In this document: positions 4,567 to 55,264 of the stretch, one piece after another
How positions within the stretch are numbered: the first letter of the stretch is position 1
How the letters are laid out: the number at the start of each line of letters is the position of its first letter
Source of the DNA: Chloroflexota bacterium
GTDB lineage: Bacteria > Chloroflexota > Limnocylindria > Limnocylindrales > CSP1-4
Direction of reading: 5' to 3'
Length of the DNA stretch: 64,000 nt
NCBI GenBank assembly: GCA_019637815.1
Contig: JAHBUZ010000011.1
Location: 18,758 to 82,757, forward strand
The notes under the pieces: model-generated
Database searches by the model: none
The model's input: the letters and a program-made list of their open reading frames with translations, nothing else
What the model was told of the DNA's origin: nothing
Position numbers and translations under genes: made by a program

Positions 4567-5637
4567 ATGCCAGGACCGTCGGTGATGACCGTGACCGGCT
4601 CGGTCAGCGCATCGGATCTCGGCATCGTCCTGCCCCACGAGCACCTCGTATCGGACTGCACGCCCTACTACGTCGCCTCGCCGGATCCGGAGCGCGCCCG
4701 CATCGGTGCCGGACCCGTGGACATCACCACGCTCCACCTCCTGCGCCGTGACCTGTTCGCGATCCGCGACAACCTGCTGCTCGACGATGTCGACCTCGCC
4801 GTCACGGAGGTCGCCGCGTTCCAGGCATCGGGCGGCCGGACCATCATCGACACCACGCCACCGGACGTCGGTCGCGACCCGGTGGCCCTGCGGCGGATCG
4901 CGGAGCGGTCGGGTCTCCACCTGATCATGGGCTGCGGCCACTACGTCCATCCGGTCCACCCGCCCAGCCTCGAGCACGAGCCCGTGGAGTCGATCGCGGA
5001 CCGGCTGATCGCCGAGATCGAGGGCGGGGTGGCGGACACGGGTATCCGGCCCGGCATCATCGGGGAGCTGGGGACGTGGGACCCACTCCATCCACGCGAG
5101 GAACGCGTGCTCCGCGCCGCGGCGCGCGCCCAGCGGGCCACGGGCCTGGCCATCAGCGTCCACGTCCACATCGCTGCGCGGACCGCGCTGCGGGTGCTGG
5201 ACGTCCTCGAGGACGCAGGTGCCGACCCGACCCGCGTGATCCTCGGCCATCTCGACATCGAGCTGGGTCACCTGGACACGACCGAGGCCGAGGTCATCGA
5301 GCACCATCGTGCGGTCGCAGCGCGGGGCGCCTACGTCGAATACGACACCTGGGGGACGGAGGTGTTCGCGCCGCGGTCGCCCGTCACGCCGCCGTTCTGG
5401 ACACCGAGCGACCTCACCCGTGCCCGAGCCATCGCACGGCTCGTGGAGGACGGCTACGGTGACCGGTTGCTGCTGTCCCACGACGTGTTCACGAAGAGCC
5501 AGCTGCTGCGCTACGGCGGCTTTGGCTACGGCCACATCCTGCGCGACACCCAGTACCGCTTGCGAGAGGTGGGCCTGACCGACACGGACATCGACCGGAT
5601 GCTCATCGAGTCCCCGAGGCGCGTCCTCGCTGGCTGA
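4567..5637 (+). CDS. phosphotriesterase-family protein (PTE-like lactonase/PHP homolog), paralog 1
   Basis: HEHL metal-binding motif near the N-terminus with a TIM-barrel PTE-family signature. The gene sits 35 nt after the GntR stop. Confidence 0.8.
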   Translation: MPGPSVMTVTGSVSASDLGIVLPHEHLVSDCTPYYVASPDPERARIGAGPVDITTLHLLRRDLFAIRDNLLLDDVDLAVTEVAAFQASGGRTIIDTTPPDVGRDPVALRRIAERSGLHLIMGCGHYVHPVHPPSLEHEPVESIADRLIAEIEGGVADTGIRPGIIGELGTWDPLHPREERVLRAAARAQRATGLAISVHVHIAARTALRVLDVLEDAGADPTRVILGHLDIELGHLDTTEAEVIEHHRAVAARGAYVEYDTWGTEVFAPRSPVTPPFWTPSDLTRARAIARLVEDGYGDRLLLSHDVFTKSQLLRYGGFGYGHILRDTQYRLREVGLTDTDIDRMLIESPRRVLAG

Positions 5638-51193: not shown

Positions 51194-52897
51194 GTGCAGA
51201 CCCAGCTCCCTGTCATCCGCACGTACACCGGGCCGGACCGCGCGTCCGCCCAGGAGGCCTATCGCCGCGACGCGCAGCAGGCGCGCCAGACCGGCTGGCA
51301 TGCGGTCGCCCATCGTTGGCGCGTGGTCGATGGTCAGCAGGAGCTGGCCGTCGTGTTCCAGCCGGCAGCCTCCACGGTCGACGAGCCCGAGACGGTCGAC
51401 GCACCGTTCGCTGCTGTGCCCGAGGCGCCCCTCGAGGCGACCATGAACGAGGCGGATGTCGGAGCCGAGGCGGAGGCCGAGACGCCCGTGGGCGCCGTCG
51501 AGGCCGAGGCGGCGGATGTCGGAGCCGAGGCGGAGGCCGAGACGCCCGTGGGCGCCGTCGAGGCCGAGGCGGCGGATGCGGCCGAGGCGGAGGCCGAGAC
51601 GCCCGTGGGCGCCGTCGAGGCCGAGGCGGCGGATGCGGCCGAGGAGGAGGCCGTCAGCGCCGAGGAGGCCGTCGGGGCGGATGCGGAGCCTGTCGGGGCC
51701 GGGGAGCCCAGTGCGGCCGCCGTCGACGACGACCCACCGGCTGCGACATCCCCCACGGTCGACGAGCCCGACACGGCCGCGGAGCCGGAGCCCAGGGAGC
51801 GCCCGACCACGCCCAGCCAGCCCGCGAGCGGCGCCCGCGCCCATGCCCGGATGGTCATCGAGACCATCGACCTGCATGCCGGCGGTGAACCGCTCCGGCT
51901 CATCCGCTCGGGCTATCCGCGGGTCCCCAGCGCGCCCATCCTGGAGCGACGACGCTGGGTGCGGGAGCACGCGGACGCCGTGCGTCGGGCGATCATCCAC
52001 GAGCCGCGCGGCCACCGGGACATGTATGGCGCGGTGCTCCTGCCGGCACACCGACCAGATGCGGATATCGCGGTGCTGTTCCTCCACAACGAGGGATACA
52101 GCACGATGTGCGGGCACGGCATCATCGCGCTCGCCACGGGACTCCTGGAGGAGGGCCTGTATCCGGCCACGGCCCCCACCACGACCATCCGCTGGGAGAC
52201 GCCGGCTGGCCTGGTCACGTCCACCAGCGAGGTGTCGCTCGGCCCGGGCGGGCGCGTCGCGGTGTCCGGTGTCCGGTTCCGCAACGTGCCGGGCTATCTC
52301 CACGCCCGAGACCTGCTGGTGCCACTCGGCACGCTCGGTCCGCCGGGTGTCGCGGCGGCACGAGCCCACCTGGCCTTCGGTGGCGCGTACTACGGCATCG
52401 TGGATGCCGCGGATCTCGGCGTGCGCGTGACGCGTGACGCGGTGCCTGCGCTCCGCACCCTGGGCACCACCCTCACGGCACGGCTCCGCGAGGACCACGC
52501 GCCGACCCACCCCACCGATCCGGACCTCGGCTTCGTGTACGGCACGATCATCGTGGATCACGATCCGGCGAGCCTCTCGGATGGCCTGGCGCCGGATGCC
52601 GATCTGCGCTCCATCACGGTGTTCGCGGACGCGGAGGTCGATCGATCGCCCTGCGGCTCGGGGACGAGCGCCCTGCTCGCGTGGCTGCACGCGACCGGCC
52701 GACGTGCCGTCGGCGACCACGTGCGGAACGCGAGCGTGACCGGGGCCGTGTTCGACGGACGGATCGAGGAGACCGCGACCGTCGGCGACCGGGACGGCGT
52801 CGTGACGAGCATCGCGGGCACGGGCTACGTGACGGGCTACCACACGTTCGTGGTGGATGAGCGCGATCCGCTGGGAGACGGCTTCCTGCTGGCCTGA
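51194..52897 (+). CDS. proline-racemase-family enzyme (4-hydroxyproline epimerase/proline racemase type, both catalytic Cys present) fused to an N-terminal domain and an acidic tandem-repeat linker
   Basis: The C-terminal roughly 350 aa (from MVIETIDLHAGGEPLRLIRSG at 51851) carry MCGHG and SPCGSGTSA. The N-terminal 219 codons are continuous in frame with strongly GC-rich third positions. GTG start at 51194 after a GGGGGAGG RBS. The enzyme could alternatively initiate at 51851. Confidence 0.65.
   Translation: MQTQLPVIRTYTGPDRASAQEAYRRDAQQARQTGWHAVAHRWRVVDGQQELAVVFQPAASTVDEPETVDAPFAAVPEAPLEATMNEADVGAEAEAETPVGAVEAEAADVGAEAEAETPVGAVEAEAADAAEAEAETPVGAVEAEAADAAEEEAVSAEEAVGADAEPVGAGEPSAAAVDDDPPAATSPTVDEPDTAAEPEPRERPTTPSQPASGARAHARMVIETIDLHAGGEPLRLIRSGYPRVPSAPILERRRWVREHADAVRRAIIHEPRGHRDMYGAVLLPAHRPDADIAVLFLHNEGYSTMCGHGIIALATGLLEEGLYPATAPTTTIRWETPAGLVTSTSEVSLGPGGRVAVSGVRFRNVPGYLHARDLLVPLGTLGPPGVAAARAHLAFGGAYYGIVDAADLGVRVTRDAVPALRTLGTTLTARLREDHAPTHPTDPDLGFVYGTIIVDHDPASLSDGLAPDADLRSITVFADAEVDRSPCGSGTSALLAWLHATGRRAVGDHVRNASVTGAVFDGRIEETATVGDRDGVVTSIAGTGYVTGYHTFVVDERDPLGDGFLLA
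51455..51631 (+). repeat. three tandem direct repeats (60, 60 and 57 bp) encoding the acidic peptide repeat D(V/A)(G/A)AEAEAETPVGAVEAEAA
   Basis: Unit GATGTCGGAGCCGAGGCGGAGGCCGAGACGCCCGTGGGCGCCGTCGAGGCCGAGGCGGCG is repeated exactly at 51455 and 51515. A 57-bp variant follows at 51575, and degenerate copies come after that. Confidence 0.75.
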
Positions 52898-52962
52898 GCC
52901 GGTCTGCGGCCGACCGACGGGACGGCTGCAACCGCTGGGCCCCGGGCCGTGTTCCTGTCAGC

Positions 52963-53532
52963 GTGTGCATCGAATGCCCCGCCGCGCTGGCGACCGACCC
53001 CCGGGCCGCGTTCCCGACGTTCGTGCGTCATCACCAGGACCTGGTCTACGGGCTCGCCCGGCGGTGGACCCGTGACGCCGCCGATGCCGAGGACGTGGCC
53101 CAGGATTCGTTCCTGCGCGCCTGGCGAGCCATCGAGCGCTATCCGCCGGAACGCATCCGGGAGCTCCACACACGAGGCTGGCTGGCACGCATCGTGCGCA
53201 ACGTCGCCCACAACCGTGCCCGGGACGCCGCACCGGCACACGCGACCCTCGAGGATGCCCCCGAGCCGGTCGATCCGGAGGCCCGCACGCCCGTGGCGAC
53301 GCTGATGCGTCGCGAATCGGCACGTACCTGGGCGGCACGCCTGGCGCAGCTGCCGGACCGGCAACGGATCGCCGTGGAGCTGCGCCATGTGCACGGCCTG
53401 TCCTACGCGGAGATGACGGAGGCGCTGGAGCGTCCCGTCAACACCATCAAGTCGGATGTCCACCGGGGCATCCGCACGCTCCGTGCCTCGATGGAGGCCG
53501 CGGACGACCTGGAGCTGGAGGTGGCGCGGTGA
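52963..53532 (+). CDS. ECF (sigma-70 family) RNA polymerase sigma factor
   Basis: Region 2 (DAEDVAQDSFLRAWRAIERY) and region 4 (LPDRQRIAVELRHVHGLSYAEMTEALERPVNTIKSDVHRG). GTG start at 52963. Confidence 0.75.
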   Translation: MCIECPAALATDPRAAFPTFVRHHQDLVYGLARRWTRDAADAEDVAQDSFLRAWRAIERYPPERIRELHTRGWLARIVRNVAHNRARDAAPAHATLEDAPEPVDPEARTPVATLMRRESARTWAARLAQLPDRQRIAVELRHVHGLSYAEMTEALERPVNTIKSDVHRGIRTLRASMEAADDLELEVAR

Positions 53533-54344
53533 ACCGGCCACGGACCCTGGAGGAGGCACGCACCATGGTGAAGGCGATGCGCGAGACGGCGGAGCGGGCA
53601 CCCGATGGTCTCGCGGACGCGGTGCTCGCGGAGCTGGGCATGGCCGATGGCTATGCGGAGGTGGACGGGCCGGTCGACCGGCTGTACGTCGCGTGGGGCC
53701 CCGACGGCGTCACGGCAGTGGAGCGCGTGGGCGATCCCATGGGCTTCGAGACGGAGGTCCAGCTGCGCACCGGTCGACCCGTCCGGCGCATGGAGCGACT
53801 GCCGGCGCGCCTGGCGCGACAGGTCGACCGCCAGCTCGCCGGTGACCGGCAGCGGGACCTGCCCGTGGACCTCGGCACGCTCACCTCGTTCGAGCAGCAG
53901 GTGCTCCGGACGGTCATGGGCATCCCGTGGGGCGAGGTCCGCTCCTACGCGTGGGTGGCTCGGGAGATCGGTCGGCCACGGGCGGTGCGGGCCGTGGGCT
54001 CGGCGCTCGCCGGCAACCCCATCCCGTTCGTCATCCCCTGCCACCGGGTGGTCCGCACGGACGGCCACATCGGTGAGTACGGGGCCGGTGGCCCGGAGGC
54101 GAAGCGGGAGGTGCTGCGCACGGAGGGCATCGACCCTGACGAGCTGGAGGCGCTCGCCGACCGGGGCATCCGCTATCTGGGCAGCGACACCACGGGCATC
54201 TATTGCTGGCCCTCGTGCCACCACGCGCGCCGCATCACCGACGCCCATCGCGTGACCTTCCGGACCGCGGAGCAGGCACGCGTCTCGGGGTTCCGGCCAT
54301 GCACCGCGTGTCGGCCCCTGGAAGGGGCCGTGTTCGCGGCCTGA
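53529..54344 (+). CDS. O6-alkylguanine-DNA alkyltransferase (Ogt/MGMT) fused to a C-terminal Ada-type zinc-finger (methylphosphotriester-sensing) domain
   Basis: The ATG overlaps the sigma-factor stop by ATGA. The MGMT DNA-binding domain has the PCHRV active site (NPIPFVIPCHRVV). The C-terminus TGIYCWPSC...GFRPCTACRP matches the Ada N-terminal Zn-binding Cys4 motif. Confidence 0.7.
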   Translation: MNRPRTLEEARTMVKAMRETAERAPDGLADAVLAELGMADGYAEVDGPVDRLYVAWGPDGVTAVERVGDPMGFETEVQLRTGRPVRRMERLPARLARQVDRQLAGDRQRDLPVDLGTLTSFEQQVLRTVMGIPWGEVRSYAWVAREIGRPRAVRAVGSALAGNPIPFVIPCHRVVRTDGHIGEYGAGGPEAKREVLRTEGIDPDELEALADRGIRYLGSDTTGIYCWPSCHHARRITDAHRVTFRTAEQARVSGFRPCTACRPLEGAVFAA

Positions 54345-54412
54345 TCCGTCCGTCGAGCCCAGCGATCGGCCGGGCGATCGGCCGACCACCGTCGGTCGAC
54401 CGATGCCGTCGG

Positions 54413-55264
54413 TCAGGCGGGTCGCCGGGCGACCACCGAGACGAGCGGTGTGCGCCAGTGGAAGGCCTCGGGAGGCAACGCTGACAGGCGACGCTGGGCG
54501 ATGTCCACGAGTCGATGGGCGTCCTCGTCGGACAGCCATCGGAAGAGCGCCGTCTCGTCGTAGCGGATCTTGAACGCCAGGTAGCTCGCCAGCGTCCAGT
54601 CGAACGCGAGCGTGGTCTCGCGGGCGCTCACGCGCACGAACCCGGCGCGTCGGACCTCGTCCGCGGCGCTCCGGACGCTCCGCAGGTCACCCGCGACCGG
54701 CGCCTCGTCCTCGGCTGGCTCCGGCTCCTCGACACCCAGGTCCAGGACCGCCTCATCGAACTCCTCGGCGGGCGGGAACGGCTCGCCCCGGTCGAGCCAT
54801 GTGATGAACGCGAGCTGGCCACCCGGTCGGAGGACGCGCCGCGCCTCGGCGAGCGCGGCAGGTCGGTCGGGCACCAGCTGGAGCGCGAAGGAGCTGACCA
54901 CGAGGTCGACGGACGCGTCCGGGATCGGCATCGCCGCGGCGGGGGCCGTGATCCAGCGCACCCGGTCGTCATCCAGGGCCGCACGCTCGGCGCGCCGCGC
55001 CGCCATCCCCAGCATGCCCCGCGACGGGTCGACGCCCAGCACGAGGGCGTCGGGCCAGCGCGCCGCGGCATCGATGGCCAGCACCCCCGAGCCGGTCCCC
55101 ACGTCCGCGACGATGGGTCGTGTCGACGGGTGGCTCGCGATCGGCGCGCCGACCCGGTCGAGCAGCCCGCGGGCGCTCGCATCGAGCACCGGCGCCCACC
55201 AAGTCTCGTAGTCCTCGGCATCGTGGTCGTATCGCTCGACGAGCGTGCACACGGTCGTATCCAT
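54413..55264 (-). CDS. class I SAM-dependent methyltransferase
   Basis: Motif I (VADVGTGSGVLA), post-I acidic residue and motif II (LRPGGQLAF). Confidence 0.75.
   Translation of the reverse strand: MDTTVCTLVERYDHDAEDYETWWAPVLDASARGLLDRVGAPIASHPSTRPIVADVGTGSGVLAIDAAARWPDALVLGVDPSRGMLGMAARRAERAALDDDRVRWITAPAAAMPIPDASVDLVVSSFALQLVPDRPAALAEARRVLRPGGQLAFITWLDRGEPFPPAEEFDEAVLDLGVEEPEPAEDEAPVAGDLRSVRSAADEVRRAGFVRVSARETTLAFDWTLASYLAFKIRYDETALFRWLSDEDAHRLVDIAQRRLSALPPEAFHWRTPLVSVVARRPA

Follow-up and report, generated by a model that had tools for sequence, protein, structure and literature searches.

We describe here a pair of overlapping genes, found in a window of 64 kb of DNA, which probably forms a self-inducing switch for alkylation damage. 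As judged from sequence, the repair enzyme coded by the second gene would act as an anti-sigma factor for the ECF sigma factor coded by the first one, and self-alkylation of the enzyme would release the sigma factor. To a wider proposal we give about even chances: a suicide repair enzyme would serve as anti-sigma factor, each lesion consuming one inhibitor and freeing one sigma factor. Such a stoichiometric "damage counter" would be an adaptive response independent of Ada, widespread in Chloroflexota, Actinomycetota, Dormibacterota and other phyla, with the zinc-binding anti-sigma domain present in all states, from complete to a two-helix remnant.

Organization of the gene pair

The sigma factor gene is found on the forward strand in positions 52963–53532. 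It has a GTG start and codes for 189 amino acids. The second gene, on the same strand (53529–54344), codes for a putative anti-sigma/repair fusion of 271 amino acids: a two-helix module is followed by the Ogt N-domain, the Ogt C-domain and an Ada-type zinc finger. Both reading frames are present where the initial annotation had placed them. They overlap by 4 nt, the GTG start at 53529 sharing its letters with the TGA stop at 53530–53532. An ATGA overlap had been described: the 4-nt overlap of start and stop is correct, the letters are GTGA. Such ATGA/GTGA overlaps are the commonest junction among related loci.

The sequence also reads a Shine-Dalgarno-like GGAGG (53517–53521, forward strand), within the last codons of the sigma gene and 7 nt 5' of the GTG. 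The second gene has an alternative start, the ATG at 53565, which gives a form with 259 amino acids and is the one chosen by gene callers elsewhere. The GTG is preferred as the start, though not proven, because homologues conserve the residues coded between both starts, TLEEAR, and the GGAGG precedes it by 7 nt. No intrinsic terminator was found in a scan of 52700–54700. Thus organized, the two proteins come, with strong support, from a single transcript and a coupled production; the protein of the second gene is the sole candidate regulator within the operon. The host is a metagenome-assembled genome (MAG) of Chloroflexota.

In the sigma factor Pfam detects region 2 (Sigma70_r2, amino acids 20–89, E = 5.8e-19, 68.1 bits) and region 4 (Sigma70_r4_2, amino acids 125–173, E = 8.9e-13, 48.1 bits), while regions 1.1 and 3 are absent in the same search. 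The protein also matches the NCBIfam profile TIGR02937 (sigma70-ECF) with 88.6 bits, the cut-off being 42.9. Since only these two regions are present and the ECF profile is matched above its cut-off, by its domain content the product of 52963–53532 is a member of the ECF (group 4) branch of the sigma-70 family. Its N-terminus reads MCIECP, a CxxC which is conserved in the close clade only.

The alkyltransferase and its zinc finger

The core of the second protein is an O6-alkylguanine-DNA alkyltransferase (53643–54131, forward strand), with an N-domain in amino acids ~39–115 and a C-domain in 121–201. The string PCHRV, from which the initial annotation had recognized this enzyme, is present, and the C-domain matches Pfam DNA_binding_1/Ogt (PF01035, amino acids 121–201) far above the cut-off: 6.4e-30, 103 bits against 27. 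The N-domain is also found, both by Foldseek and in the alignment with 1sfe (amino acids 39–200). The best PDB matches by sequence are 1sfe (E. coli Ada-C, 1.3e-20) and 1adn (1.9e-5). The active-site PCHR is coded in 54036–54047 (forward strand); from the sequence, Cys171 (codon 54039–54041) is the predicted suicide alkyl acceptor. This PCHR is found in 80 of 80 related loci. Residues Y140, R154, N163, PCHR 170–173, Y184 and E199, which cover the active site with its His-Glu network, the arginine finger, the Asn hinge and the Tyr residues expected of an AGT, align with those of hAGT and Ada-C; all of them are invariant in 70 family members, except Y184, which is either Y or F.

Foldseek matches the model of the protein to 4bhb, 1sfe and 1yfh (E ~1e-9) and also to 1u8b. 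The AF2 monomer is moderately confident (pLDDT 76, pTM 0.42). Its N-terminal helices have values of ~68–75, and the active-site stretch, amino acids 166–172, falls below 50.

The C-terminal finger, of the Cys4 type found in the N-terminal part of Ada, is coded in 54174–54317 (forward strand, amino acids 216–263). The strings TGIYCWPSC and GFRPCTACRP had led to its initial recognition, and the formal search agrees: Ada_Zn_binding (PF02805) gives 7.9e-11 and 42.2 bits, with a cut-off of 23. The match spans positions 18–64 of the 65 in the profile, so that the first N-Ada helix is missing. In phmmer alignments with 1adn, 1u8b and 1zgw, Cys226, Cys230, Cys258 and Cys261 correspond to Cys38, Cys42, Cys69 and Cys72 of E. 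coli Ada. Each ligand is kept in 56–57 of the 57 finger-bearing sequences. The alignment makes Cys226 (54204–54206) the equivalent of Cys38, the acceptor from methylphosphotriesters. The domain positions also bear out the proposed order, Ogt and then finger with no HTH: Pfam gives no match to HTH_AraC or HTH_18, and the protein ends, with an FAA tail, 8 residues past the finger. With the NCBIfam Ada equivalog it scores 111 bits, below the threshold of 345.

There is strong support for the prediction that the second gene codes for a suicide alkyltransferase with an intact catalytic site. As the catalytic residues and all four zinc ligands are conserved, the sensor could be alkylated.

Relatives and their distribution

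The pair had been expected to be conserved in related genomes, and it is. Among the Ogt+Ada_Zn loci, 57 reach far enough upstream to be judged, and in 52 of these a sigma gene comes directly before, on the same strand; this set may be enriched in sigma-linked members, as the loci were retrieved by peptide patterns including the N-terminus. Sigma-less Ogt+Ada_Zn enzymes are found in L012, L015, L049, L052 and L061. Sigma-linked loci are found in about eight phyla: Chloroflexota, Dormibacterota, Actinomycetota, Ktedonobacteria, Entotheonella, Methylomirabilota, Eremiobacterota and Acidobacteriota. The actinobacterial setting assumed at first did not hold; an actinobacterial origin is ruled out, as the nearest relatives are Chloroflexota MAGs with 90% identity. 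Among the carriers which have been cultured are Thermogemmatispora, Pseudonocardia acaciae DSM 45401, Saccharothrix and Actinokineospora. Two apparent natural fusions of sigma factor and Ogt were rejected: L039 is a frameshift artefact and P0185 a deletion chimera.

Some sigma-linked relatives have no Ada finger (L064, L067 and L069 types). By this comparison of sequences the finger is dispensable for the coupling to sigma. The common denominator of the sigma-linked members is the N-terminal helices plus a catalytically intact Ogt domain; the finger therefore cannot be the essential switch, and it is ruled out as a universal one.

Promoter and putative regulon

Upstream of the sigma gene we find a putative ECF-type promoter of the operon (52926–52955, forward strand), with the conserved motif GCAAC-N18-GTT. 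The –35 element is TGCAACC (GCAAC in 52928–52932) and the –10 element GTGTTC (GTGTT in 52949–52953). As the –10 element ends 9 nt before the GTG of the sigma gene, the transcript probably has no leader, or almost none. Of 59 loci, drawn from several phyla, 46–47 have the pattern GCAAC-N14-19-GKGTT in front of the sigma gene, and 39 of 46 share the same spacer. In the 64 kb of the window its single match is that of the operon itself, 0.19 being expected. A weight matrix for the promoter gives 26.1 bits at the operon; the next best match in the window has 13.7 bits and shuffled sequence reaches 19.1 at most. All other matches (13.7 bits or less) are thus inside the noise of shuffling, and no further regulon member was found in the window. 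A scan of 52700–54700 for promoters of the sigma-70 type found none. In the aligned promoters, judged by eye, there is no second conserved motif resembling an ada box upstream of –35.

The motif is also found 5' of a gene for an AlkB-like oxygenase (PF09859) in four other genomes (L043, L046, L047 and L053), and a PF09859 gene adjoins the pair in L029 and L066 as well. No PF09859 homologue was found in the window. From these sequence motifs, the apparent regulon is one of alkylation repair: the operon itself and, elsewhere, the PF09859 oxygenase. An autoregulatory promoter of this kind requires a co-expressed inhibitor, since positive feedback would otherwise run away.

The N-terminal module

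The first 38 amino acids of the second protein form a module of their own (53529–53642, forward strand), with helices predicted in amino acids 7–20 and 28–35 and a motif L-x2-L-x4-5-AP-x2-L-x3-VL. Among the members with a linked sigma gene 50 of 60 have this motif, among the sigma-less ones none of 8 (Fisher p = 6e-6), a post hoc value, as the pattern was composed after the data were seen and the sequences are not phylogenetically independent. Two close relatives, L012 and L015, retain the same upstream neighbour but have lost both module and sigma gene.

The initial annotation had found no recognizable anti-sigma factor in the pair. It is right in that no Pfam anti-sigma domain is present, and probably wrong for the first ~38 residues, which align with a segment of the zf-HC2 domain. 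When the module was compared by hhalign with the N-termini of 15 more diverse members of the same family which bear a ZAS domain, a probability of 86% was obtained (E = 4.9e-6, 33 columns). With seven ZAS–Ogt N-termini of low diversity there was no match (probability 0.5%). The aligned segment is the part of zf-HC2 past the CxxC: the end of helix 3 and helix 4. The window protein itself has neither a Pfam match to zf-HC2 nor an HxxxCxxC in its sequence, and in its AF2 model merely two helices precede the Ogt N-domain, whereas a class I (ZAS) domain has four.

Other members of the family retain the whole domain. P0160 (27.2 bits) and P0178 (24.3 bits) exceed the zf-HC2 cut-off of 22.2, and so does L079, which is an Ogt-only form. 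P0160 overlaps by 4 nt an upstream reading frame with sigma region 4. In class I anti-sigma factors it is helix 4 which binds region 2 of sigma, and 12 of the 14 top co-evolving contacts are found there (PMC7406223). We infer that the module is a minimal anti-sigma element, the counterpart of helix 4 in class I together with the end of the helix 3 before it. It is short, with neither helices 1–2 nor the zinc ligands, and alone it might bind weakly.

Proposed mechanism and alternatives

The switch which we consider probable would work as follows. In an undamaged cell the N-terminal helices would keep the sigma factor inactive: the equivalent of helix 4 would sit on sigma region 2, and the Ogt N-domain or the zinc finger might help. 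Repair of O6-alkylguanine or O4-alkylthymine through Cys171, or of a methylphosphotriester through Cys226, would leave the enzyme irreversibly alkylated. Alkylation is known to open and destabilize AGT, and methylation neutralizes the charge of the N-Ada zinc centre (PMC10779285). In the alkylated protein such an opening or destabilization, with loss of the negative charge of Zn(Cys)4, would break the contact with sigma or expose the protein to proteolysis, so that one repair event would free about one molecule of sigma. Free sigma would then transcribe its own operon, the consumed enzyme would be replaced and repression restored. In other genomes the PF09859 AlkB-like dioxygenase would be transcribed as well. 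The whole would be an Ada-like adaptive response, with a separate sigma factor in place of the AraC DNA-binding output.

It is unlikely, in our opinion, that the alkyltransferase is mere cargo, an output of a sigma factor whose activity is set elsewhere: through transcription under another regulator, through the CxxC at its N-terminus, or by an anti-sigma factor which is not linked to it. In its favour, group ECF122 has been listed among those "without anti-sigma factor" (PMC8999054), the window protein matches no anti-sigma domain of Pfam, and the sigma-less loci (L012, L015, L049, L052, L061) show that the core can be a free-standing repair enzyme. Nevertheless the N-terminal module is found in sigma-linked members alone and is probably a homologue of one part of an anti-sigma domain, which is complete in some members of the family; L012 and L015 have lost module and sigma gene jointly, and without a linked inhibitor a promoter which activates itself would run out of control.

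Two other readings keep a regulatory role for the protein and differ in the signal or in its sign. The N18-GTT geometry found here may resemble that of SigR and SigH promoters; the ZAS site HxxxCxxC is present in relatives, the window protein has its Zn(Cys)4 centre and sigma factors of the close clade begin with CxxC. These features would agree with an anti-sigma factor triggered, like RsrA, by thiol oxidation or by electrophile attack on a zinc-bound Cys, with Ogt as a passenger or an output. We also find this improbable, to a similar degree as the cargo: L064 and L067 are linked to sigma but have neither ZAS site nor Ada finger, the catalytic and DNA-binding residues of Ogt are all invariant, and the one other gene found behind the motif codes for a predicted oxygenase which dealkylates DNA/RNA, and is no thiol-redox gene. 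Still less credible is a positive co-factor, in which the alkylated protein would gain affinity for DNA and recruit or stabilize the sigma-RNAP holoenzyme at its target promoters. Methylation of the equivalent Cys38 in E. coli Ada does raise its DNA affinity and activate transcription (PMC10779285), and most members keep the finger. Against it, the module is probably related to an inhibitory domain, finger-less members retain their linkage to sigma, and by eye the aligned promoters have no ada-box-like motif upstream of –35. Release of sigma by self-alkylation of its inhibitor is the reading which we favour.

Comparison with known systems

E. coli Ada has both sensor/repair domains in common with the window protein, as well as all four zinc ligands, the PCHR site and irreversible self-methylation as the presumed signal. 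The Ada gene is autoinduced together with an oxidative dealkylase, AlkB; in the family studied here the sensor gene would likewise be autoinduced, with PF09859 as the dealkylase. The order of domains is different: N-Ada finger, AraC and Ogt in Ada, Ogt and then finger in the window protein, which has no AraC/HTH and no first N-Ada helix. The output also differs, a gain of DNA binding in Ada and a separate ECF sigma factor, with a proposed release from inhibition, in the window. M. tuberculosis AdaA-AlkA/Ogt is another shuffling of the Ada modules; it keeps an AraC-type activator and has no sigma factor, and the same is true of B. subtilis AdaA/AdaB. Both systems show how freely bacteria recombine the Ada finger and Ogt modules; the B. 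subtilis split is described in PMC10779285.

Among anti-sigma factors, those of the ZAS pairs RsrA-SigR, RshA-SigH and ChrR-RpoE are also cytoplasmic, and their genes are downstream of an autoregulated ECF sigma gene and overlap it. They are inactivated by covalent modification of Cys, as we propose for the window protein, and relatives of the latter carry the HxxxCxxC domain. The window protein differs in having neither helices 1–2 nor HxxxCxxC. Furthermore, in ZAS factors it is the anti-sigma domain itself which is oxidized; here the active site of a repair enzyme would take over an alkyl group from damaged DNA. Class II CnrY (and short factors of the NepR type) also have a sigma-binding element of about two helices, one of them on sigma-2 like helix 4 of the ASD (PMC7406223). 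CnrY is membrane-associated and part of a metal-sensing complex, whereas in the window protein the helices belong to a soluble enzyme.

The initial annotation had considered the architecture uncharacterized. This is correct for the mechanism, but the neighbourhood of sigma and Ogt is already listed: group ECF122 (Casas-Pastor et al. 2021; model WP_057211282.1, Cellulomonas sp. Root930) has a 6-O-methylguanine DNA methyltransferase as neighbour and an "unknown mechanism" (PMC8999054). An ECF sigma factor, this conserved neighbour and the lack of a recognized anti-sigma factor are shared with the window. By its neighbourhood, a PF01035-positive gene with no Pfam anti-sigma domain, the window sigma factor is a candidate member of ECF122. 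Neither the text of that review (PMC8999054) nor the main text of the paper on the classification mentions the Ada finger, the remnant helices, the ZAS relatives, the promoter motif or the PF09859 target; among the papers searched, ECF122 itself was found in the review only and is absent from that main text. Our literature search found no paper joining ECF sigma factors with alkyltransferases, and nothing on PF09859; a 2023 review on DNA alkyltransferases mentions no link with sigma factors (PMC10779285). This kind of pair is catalogued and, as far as this search goes, not characterized.

If the proposed switch is true, bacteria would have a second, mechanistically distinct adaptive response to alkylation, in which Ada sensor chemistry acts by freeing a sigma factor from inhibition and not through an AraC-type activator. 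The "orphan" group ECF122 would gain a regulator and a signal. Consumption of an enzyme would join proteolysis, partner switching and oxidation as a route of anti-sigma inactivation. Promoter, sigma factor and sensor take up 1.4 kb; they are predicted to be orthogonal and might be used as a genotoxin biosensor.

Organization of the operon

Two open reading frames on the same strand occupy positions 52963..54344. The first (52963..53532, +, 189 aa, GTG start) encodes an ECF sigma factor, whose only Pfam domains are Sigma70_r2 and Sigma70_r4_2 and which scores over the threshold of the NCBIfam ECF superfamily model. The second (53529..54344, +, 271 aa, GTG start) encodes an Ogt alkyltransferase with a C-terminal Ada-type Cys4 finger. 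Both identifications, made in the initial annotation, are confirmed. DNA_binding_1 scores 103 bits over aa 121-201 of the fusion protein and Ada_Zn_binding 42 bits over aa 216-263, where it spans profile positions 18-64 of 65; both are well over the curated cut-offs. E. coli Ada-C (1sfe) aligns to residues 39-200 (1.3e-20) and the N-Ada structures 1adn, 1u8b and 1zgw to the C-terminus, where C226, C230, C258 and C261 correspond to Ada C38, C42, C69 and C72. As had been described, the order found by Pfam and the alignments, Ogt and then finger, is the reverse of that in Ada, and there is no AraC part. An AF2 model (pLDDT 76, pTM 0.42) has two helices in the N-terminus, at aa 7-20 and 28-35, followed by Ogt in two domains and by a zinc finger modelled with confidence; with this model Foldseek retrieves Ogt/AGT structures and methylated N-Ada.

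The genes do share a 4-nt start-stop overlap. The sigma stop codon is made of the last two bases of the fusion-gene GTG and the following base, so that the overlap is GTGA and not the ATGA first reported. A Shine-Dalgarno-like GGAGG (53517..53521, +) lies 7 nt 5' of this GTG. Coupled expression of the two proteins is strongly supported by this arrangement. Other gene callers start the second gene at an ATG (53565), giving 259 aa. We prefer the GTG as the probable true start, because homologues conserve the TLEEAR peptide between both codons and the more distant ones lack a Met where the ATG lies.

Both proteins have peculiar ends in the Chloroflexota clade of the window. The sigma factor starts with MC(I/A/T)(E/D/S)CP (52963..52980; also in the related loci L001-L011 and L054). 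Sigma homologues from other phyla lack this CxxC pair, which might have a redox or metal-binding role, or might simply reflect a nucleotide constraint at a leaderless start. The fusion proteins end in a nearly invariant (P/V)FAA (54333..54341), with F269, A270 and A271 each at 90% or more. Distant members do not conserve this tail, which is similar to ClpXP tags of the ssrA or RseA type and could mark the protein for a protease.

Distribution of the gene pair

The PF01035+PF02805 architecture is found in at least 4507 database proteins, and an exhaustive HMMER search of 50%-identity representatives gave 197 clusters at E <= 1e-30. We searched 80 genomic loci by tblastn with the window sigma factor and with a sigma HMM made from the loci. 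Upstream sequence of 700 nt or more was available for 57 Ogt+Ada_Zn loci, and in 52 of them a homologue of the ECF sigma gene, in the same orientation as the second gene, ends within a few bases of its start. The loci were retrieved with peptide patterns of the window protein, N-terminus included, which may enrich sigma-linked forms. The commonest junction is the 4-nt overlap. The pair is a conserved unit.

A test of such linkage had been suggested for actinobacterial genomes; it extends over several phyla. The nearest loci are not actinobacterial, they are Chloroflexota MAGs (Limnocylindrales and one labelled 'Anaerolineaceae') with 90-76% identity. Other carriers are Ktedonobacteria (Thermogemmatispora), Dormibacterota, Entotheonella, Methylomirabilota, Eremiobacterota and Acidobacteriota, together with Actinomycetota (Pseudonocardia, Saccharothrix, Actinokineospora, Actinosynnema and Acidimicrobiia).

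Origin of the N-terminal region

Ahead of the Ogt N-domain the fusion protein has about 38 residues with the motif L-x2-L-x4-5-(A/P)P-x2-L-x3-V(L). This motif occurs in 50 of 60 sigma-linked proteins and in none of the 8 sigma-less ones (Fisher p = 6e-6, for a post hoc regular expression and non-independent sequences). The 10 exceptions are mostly forms with a zinc-binding class I anti-sigma domain (ZAS), which the expression misses. In two Chloroflexota MAGs the sigma gene and the first 35-40 or so codons of the fusion gene have gone together, a natural joint deletion which leaves the Ogt+Ada_Zn gene directly after the proline-racemase-like gene that is the upstream neighbour in the window too (L012:3929-4699 and L015:4028-4735).

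More distant sigma-linked Ogt proteins (L069-type, L079) open with the anti-sigma zinc motif HxxxCxxC, and L079 is over the zf-HC2 cut-off. Among members of the Ogt+Ada_Zn family with a long N-terminus zf-HC2 is found in the representatives P0160 (27.2 bits) and P0178 (24.3 bits; cut-off 22.2), and HxxxCxxC is seen by eye in at least 13 representatives. The gene of P0160 has a 4-nt overlap with a preceding ORF encoding sigma region 4. An alignment of window-type N-termini matches one of ZAS-type N-termini from the same family with a probability of 86% (E = 4.9e-6), and places window aa 8-38 on the part that follows CxxC, namely helix 4 and the end of helix 3. Helix 4 of class I anti-sigma domains binds sigma regions 2.1/2.2, and of the 14 top-ranked co-evolving contacts with sigma it provides 12; CnrY is a precedent for a two-helix anti-sigma factor (PMC7406223). 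Homology of the window N-terminus with part of an anti-sigma domain is likely rather than certain, because an earlier comparison with a small redundant ZAS alignment gave no match. The statement that the second gene encodes no recognisable anti-sigma factor thus holds for Pfam alone.

The N-terminus can be a complete ZAS domain, a non-zinc form of greater length (L051, P0148) or, as in the window, the two-helix remnant; a fourth state, in sigma-less proteins, is its absence. Triple fusions of ZAS, Ogt and Ada finger have about 290-320 aa (L060:3773-4648; P0160, P0178, P0137, P0145, P0179 and others); we found no description of this architecture in the literature searched. Two apparent sigma–Ogt fusions in a single ORF were rejected: L039:3350-4741 is a frameshifted MAG sequence, and P0185 is a chimera in which an in-frame deletion has joined sigma aa 1-~125 to the Ogt C-domain. 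P0255 (453 aa) has a SAM-dependent methyltransferase domain (MTS/PrmA-like) N-terminal to Ogt+Ada_Zn, an odd pairing of a methyl donor enzyme with an acceptor of methyl damage. In P0130, a giant repeat protein of low-GC style (2299 aa), 38 stretches match aa ~200-258 of the fusion protein; the repeat unit ...PEQALQAGFKPAQL... resembles the Ada-finger helix without cysteine ligands, a likeness which is probably incidental.

Conservation of the Ogt core

Y140, R154, N163, PCHR and E199 are kept in 70 of 70 aligned members, and each finger cysteine in 56-57 of 57 where the finger exists. Such conservation indicates that purifying selection maintains the protein as a functional alkyl acceptor, and strongly supports an intact suicide enzyme. 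Either the finger or the active-site Cys had been proposed as the sensor. The Ogt core is constant; most sigma-linked proteins also have the finger, but L064, L067 and the L069/L079 types are without it and sigma-linked nonetheless. The universal partner of the putative sigma-binding helices is the Ogt domain and not the finger, which is accessory in these sequences.

Promoter and apparent regulon

Directly 5' of the sigma gene there is an ECF-type promoter motif, TGCAACC-N-GTGTTC (GCAAC-N18-GTT; 52926..52955, +). Elsewhere in the 64-kb window there is no match (0.19 expected); the motif scores 26.1 bits, the next best site 13.7, and shuffled sequence never more than 19.1. A scan of 52700..54700 found neither a sigma-70-type promoter nor an intrinsic terminator. 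Of 59 loci from several phyla, 46-47 have the motif 5' of their sigma gene, and the spacer is identical in 39 of 46. Its distance from the start codon is either about 35 nt, as in the window, which implies a putative leaderless mRNA, or larger, and a Shine-Dalgarno sequence is then present. An autoregulatory promoter is strongly supported.

Over both strands, 1.27 Mb in all, the 80 loci contain only 17 other matches. Just 3' of four of these is a gene of about 233 aa with a strong match (about 1e-76) to PF09859 'Oxygenase-NA', an AlkB-like 2OG-Fe(II) oxygenase with a predicted role in nucleic-acid dealkylation. The four genes belong to Actinomycetota and Eremiobacterota (L046:2587-3285; L047:5171-5842 (-); L043:7891-8553 (-); L053:2445-3128). 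Such a gene also adjoins the operon at L029:5216-5857 and L066:~4830-5511; none lies within the 64-kb window. From these motif positions, the apparent regulon is the operon itself and, where present, another direct-reversal repair enzyme.

A possible alkylation switch

The initial annotation of an alkylation-responsive sigma system is partly supported: the observation is confirmed and its interpretation can be sharpened. We propose, and consider rather probable, that the fusion protein is an anti-sigma factor switched by alkylation. The unmodified protein would sequester the sigma factor. Alkyl transfer to Cys171, and likewise methyl transfer to Cys226 where the finger is present, would alter it and release sigma; we infer this release from the opening of AGT on alkylation and its degradation in several organisms, and from the negative charge that the N-Ada zinc centre loses when methylated (PMC10779285). 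The freed sigma factor would re-induce the operon, replace the consumed enzyme and so bring repression back. The promoter also argues for an inhibitory role, since self-activation would be unstable if no inhibitor were made together with the sigma factor.

The repair enzyme might instead be mere cargo of the sigma factor, but this is unlikely: the N-terminus is probably anti-sigma-derived, its motif co-occurs with sigma, both are lost jointly and relatives carry the full domain. An RsrA-like sensor whose zinc cysteines respond to redox state or electrophiles seems equally improbable given the zinc-free sigma-linked members and the repair-type regulon. RsrA-type ZAS factors do have the same gene organisation, but in the window the putative anti-sigma domain is truncated and its proposed modification is enzymatic. 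E. coli Ada uses the same sensor chemistry; it differs from the window protein, which has reversed domain order, no AraC output and a separate sigma factor as output. Positive co-activation by the fusion protein, as in Ada, is very improbable in view of the inhibitory ancestry suggested for its N-terminus.

The neighbourhood of sigma and Ogt is that listed for ECF122, to which the window sigma factor may belong; a 2022 review counts ECF122 among the ECF groups that have no anti-sigma factor, and gives its mechanism as unknown (PMC8999054). A 2023 alkyltransferase review does not mention sigma factors (PMC10779285), and no paper characterising the system was found in the literature searched. 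We propose that the alkylation switch is a sigma/anti-sigma pair, catalogued but not understood, whose sensor is new and consumes itself.

Neighbouring genes

A class I SAM-dependent methyltransferase gene (54413..55264, -; Methyltransf_25/11, about 1e-22) is convergent with the fusion gene and ends 69 nt from its stop; no terminator-like structure was found between them. Upstream lies a proline racemase family gene (51194..52897, +; Pfam 3e-92, aa 225-564), which is also the upstream neighbour in L001-L009, L012 and L015. It has an unusual N-terminal extension of about 220 aa with a 57-nt tandem repeat at 51464..51653 (3.3 copies, 96% matches), which encodes acidic AEAEAETPVGAVEAEAAD units.
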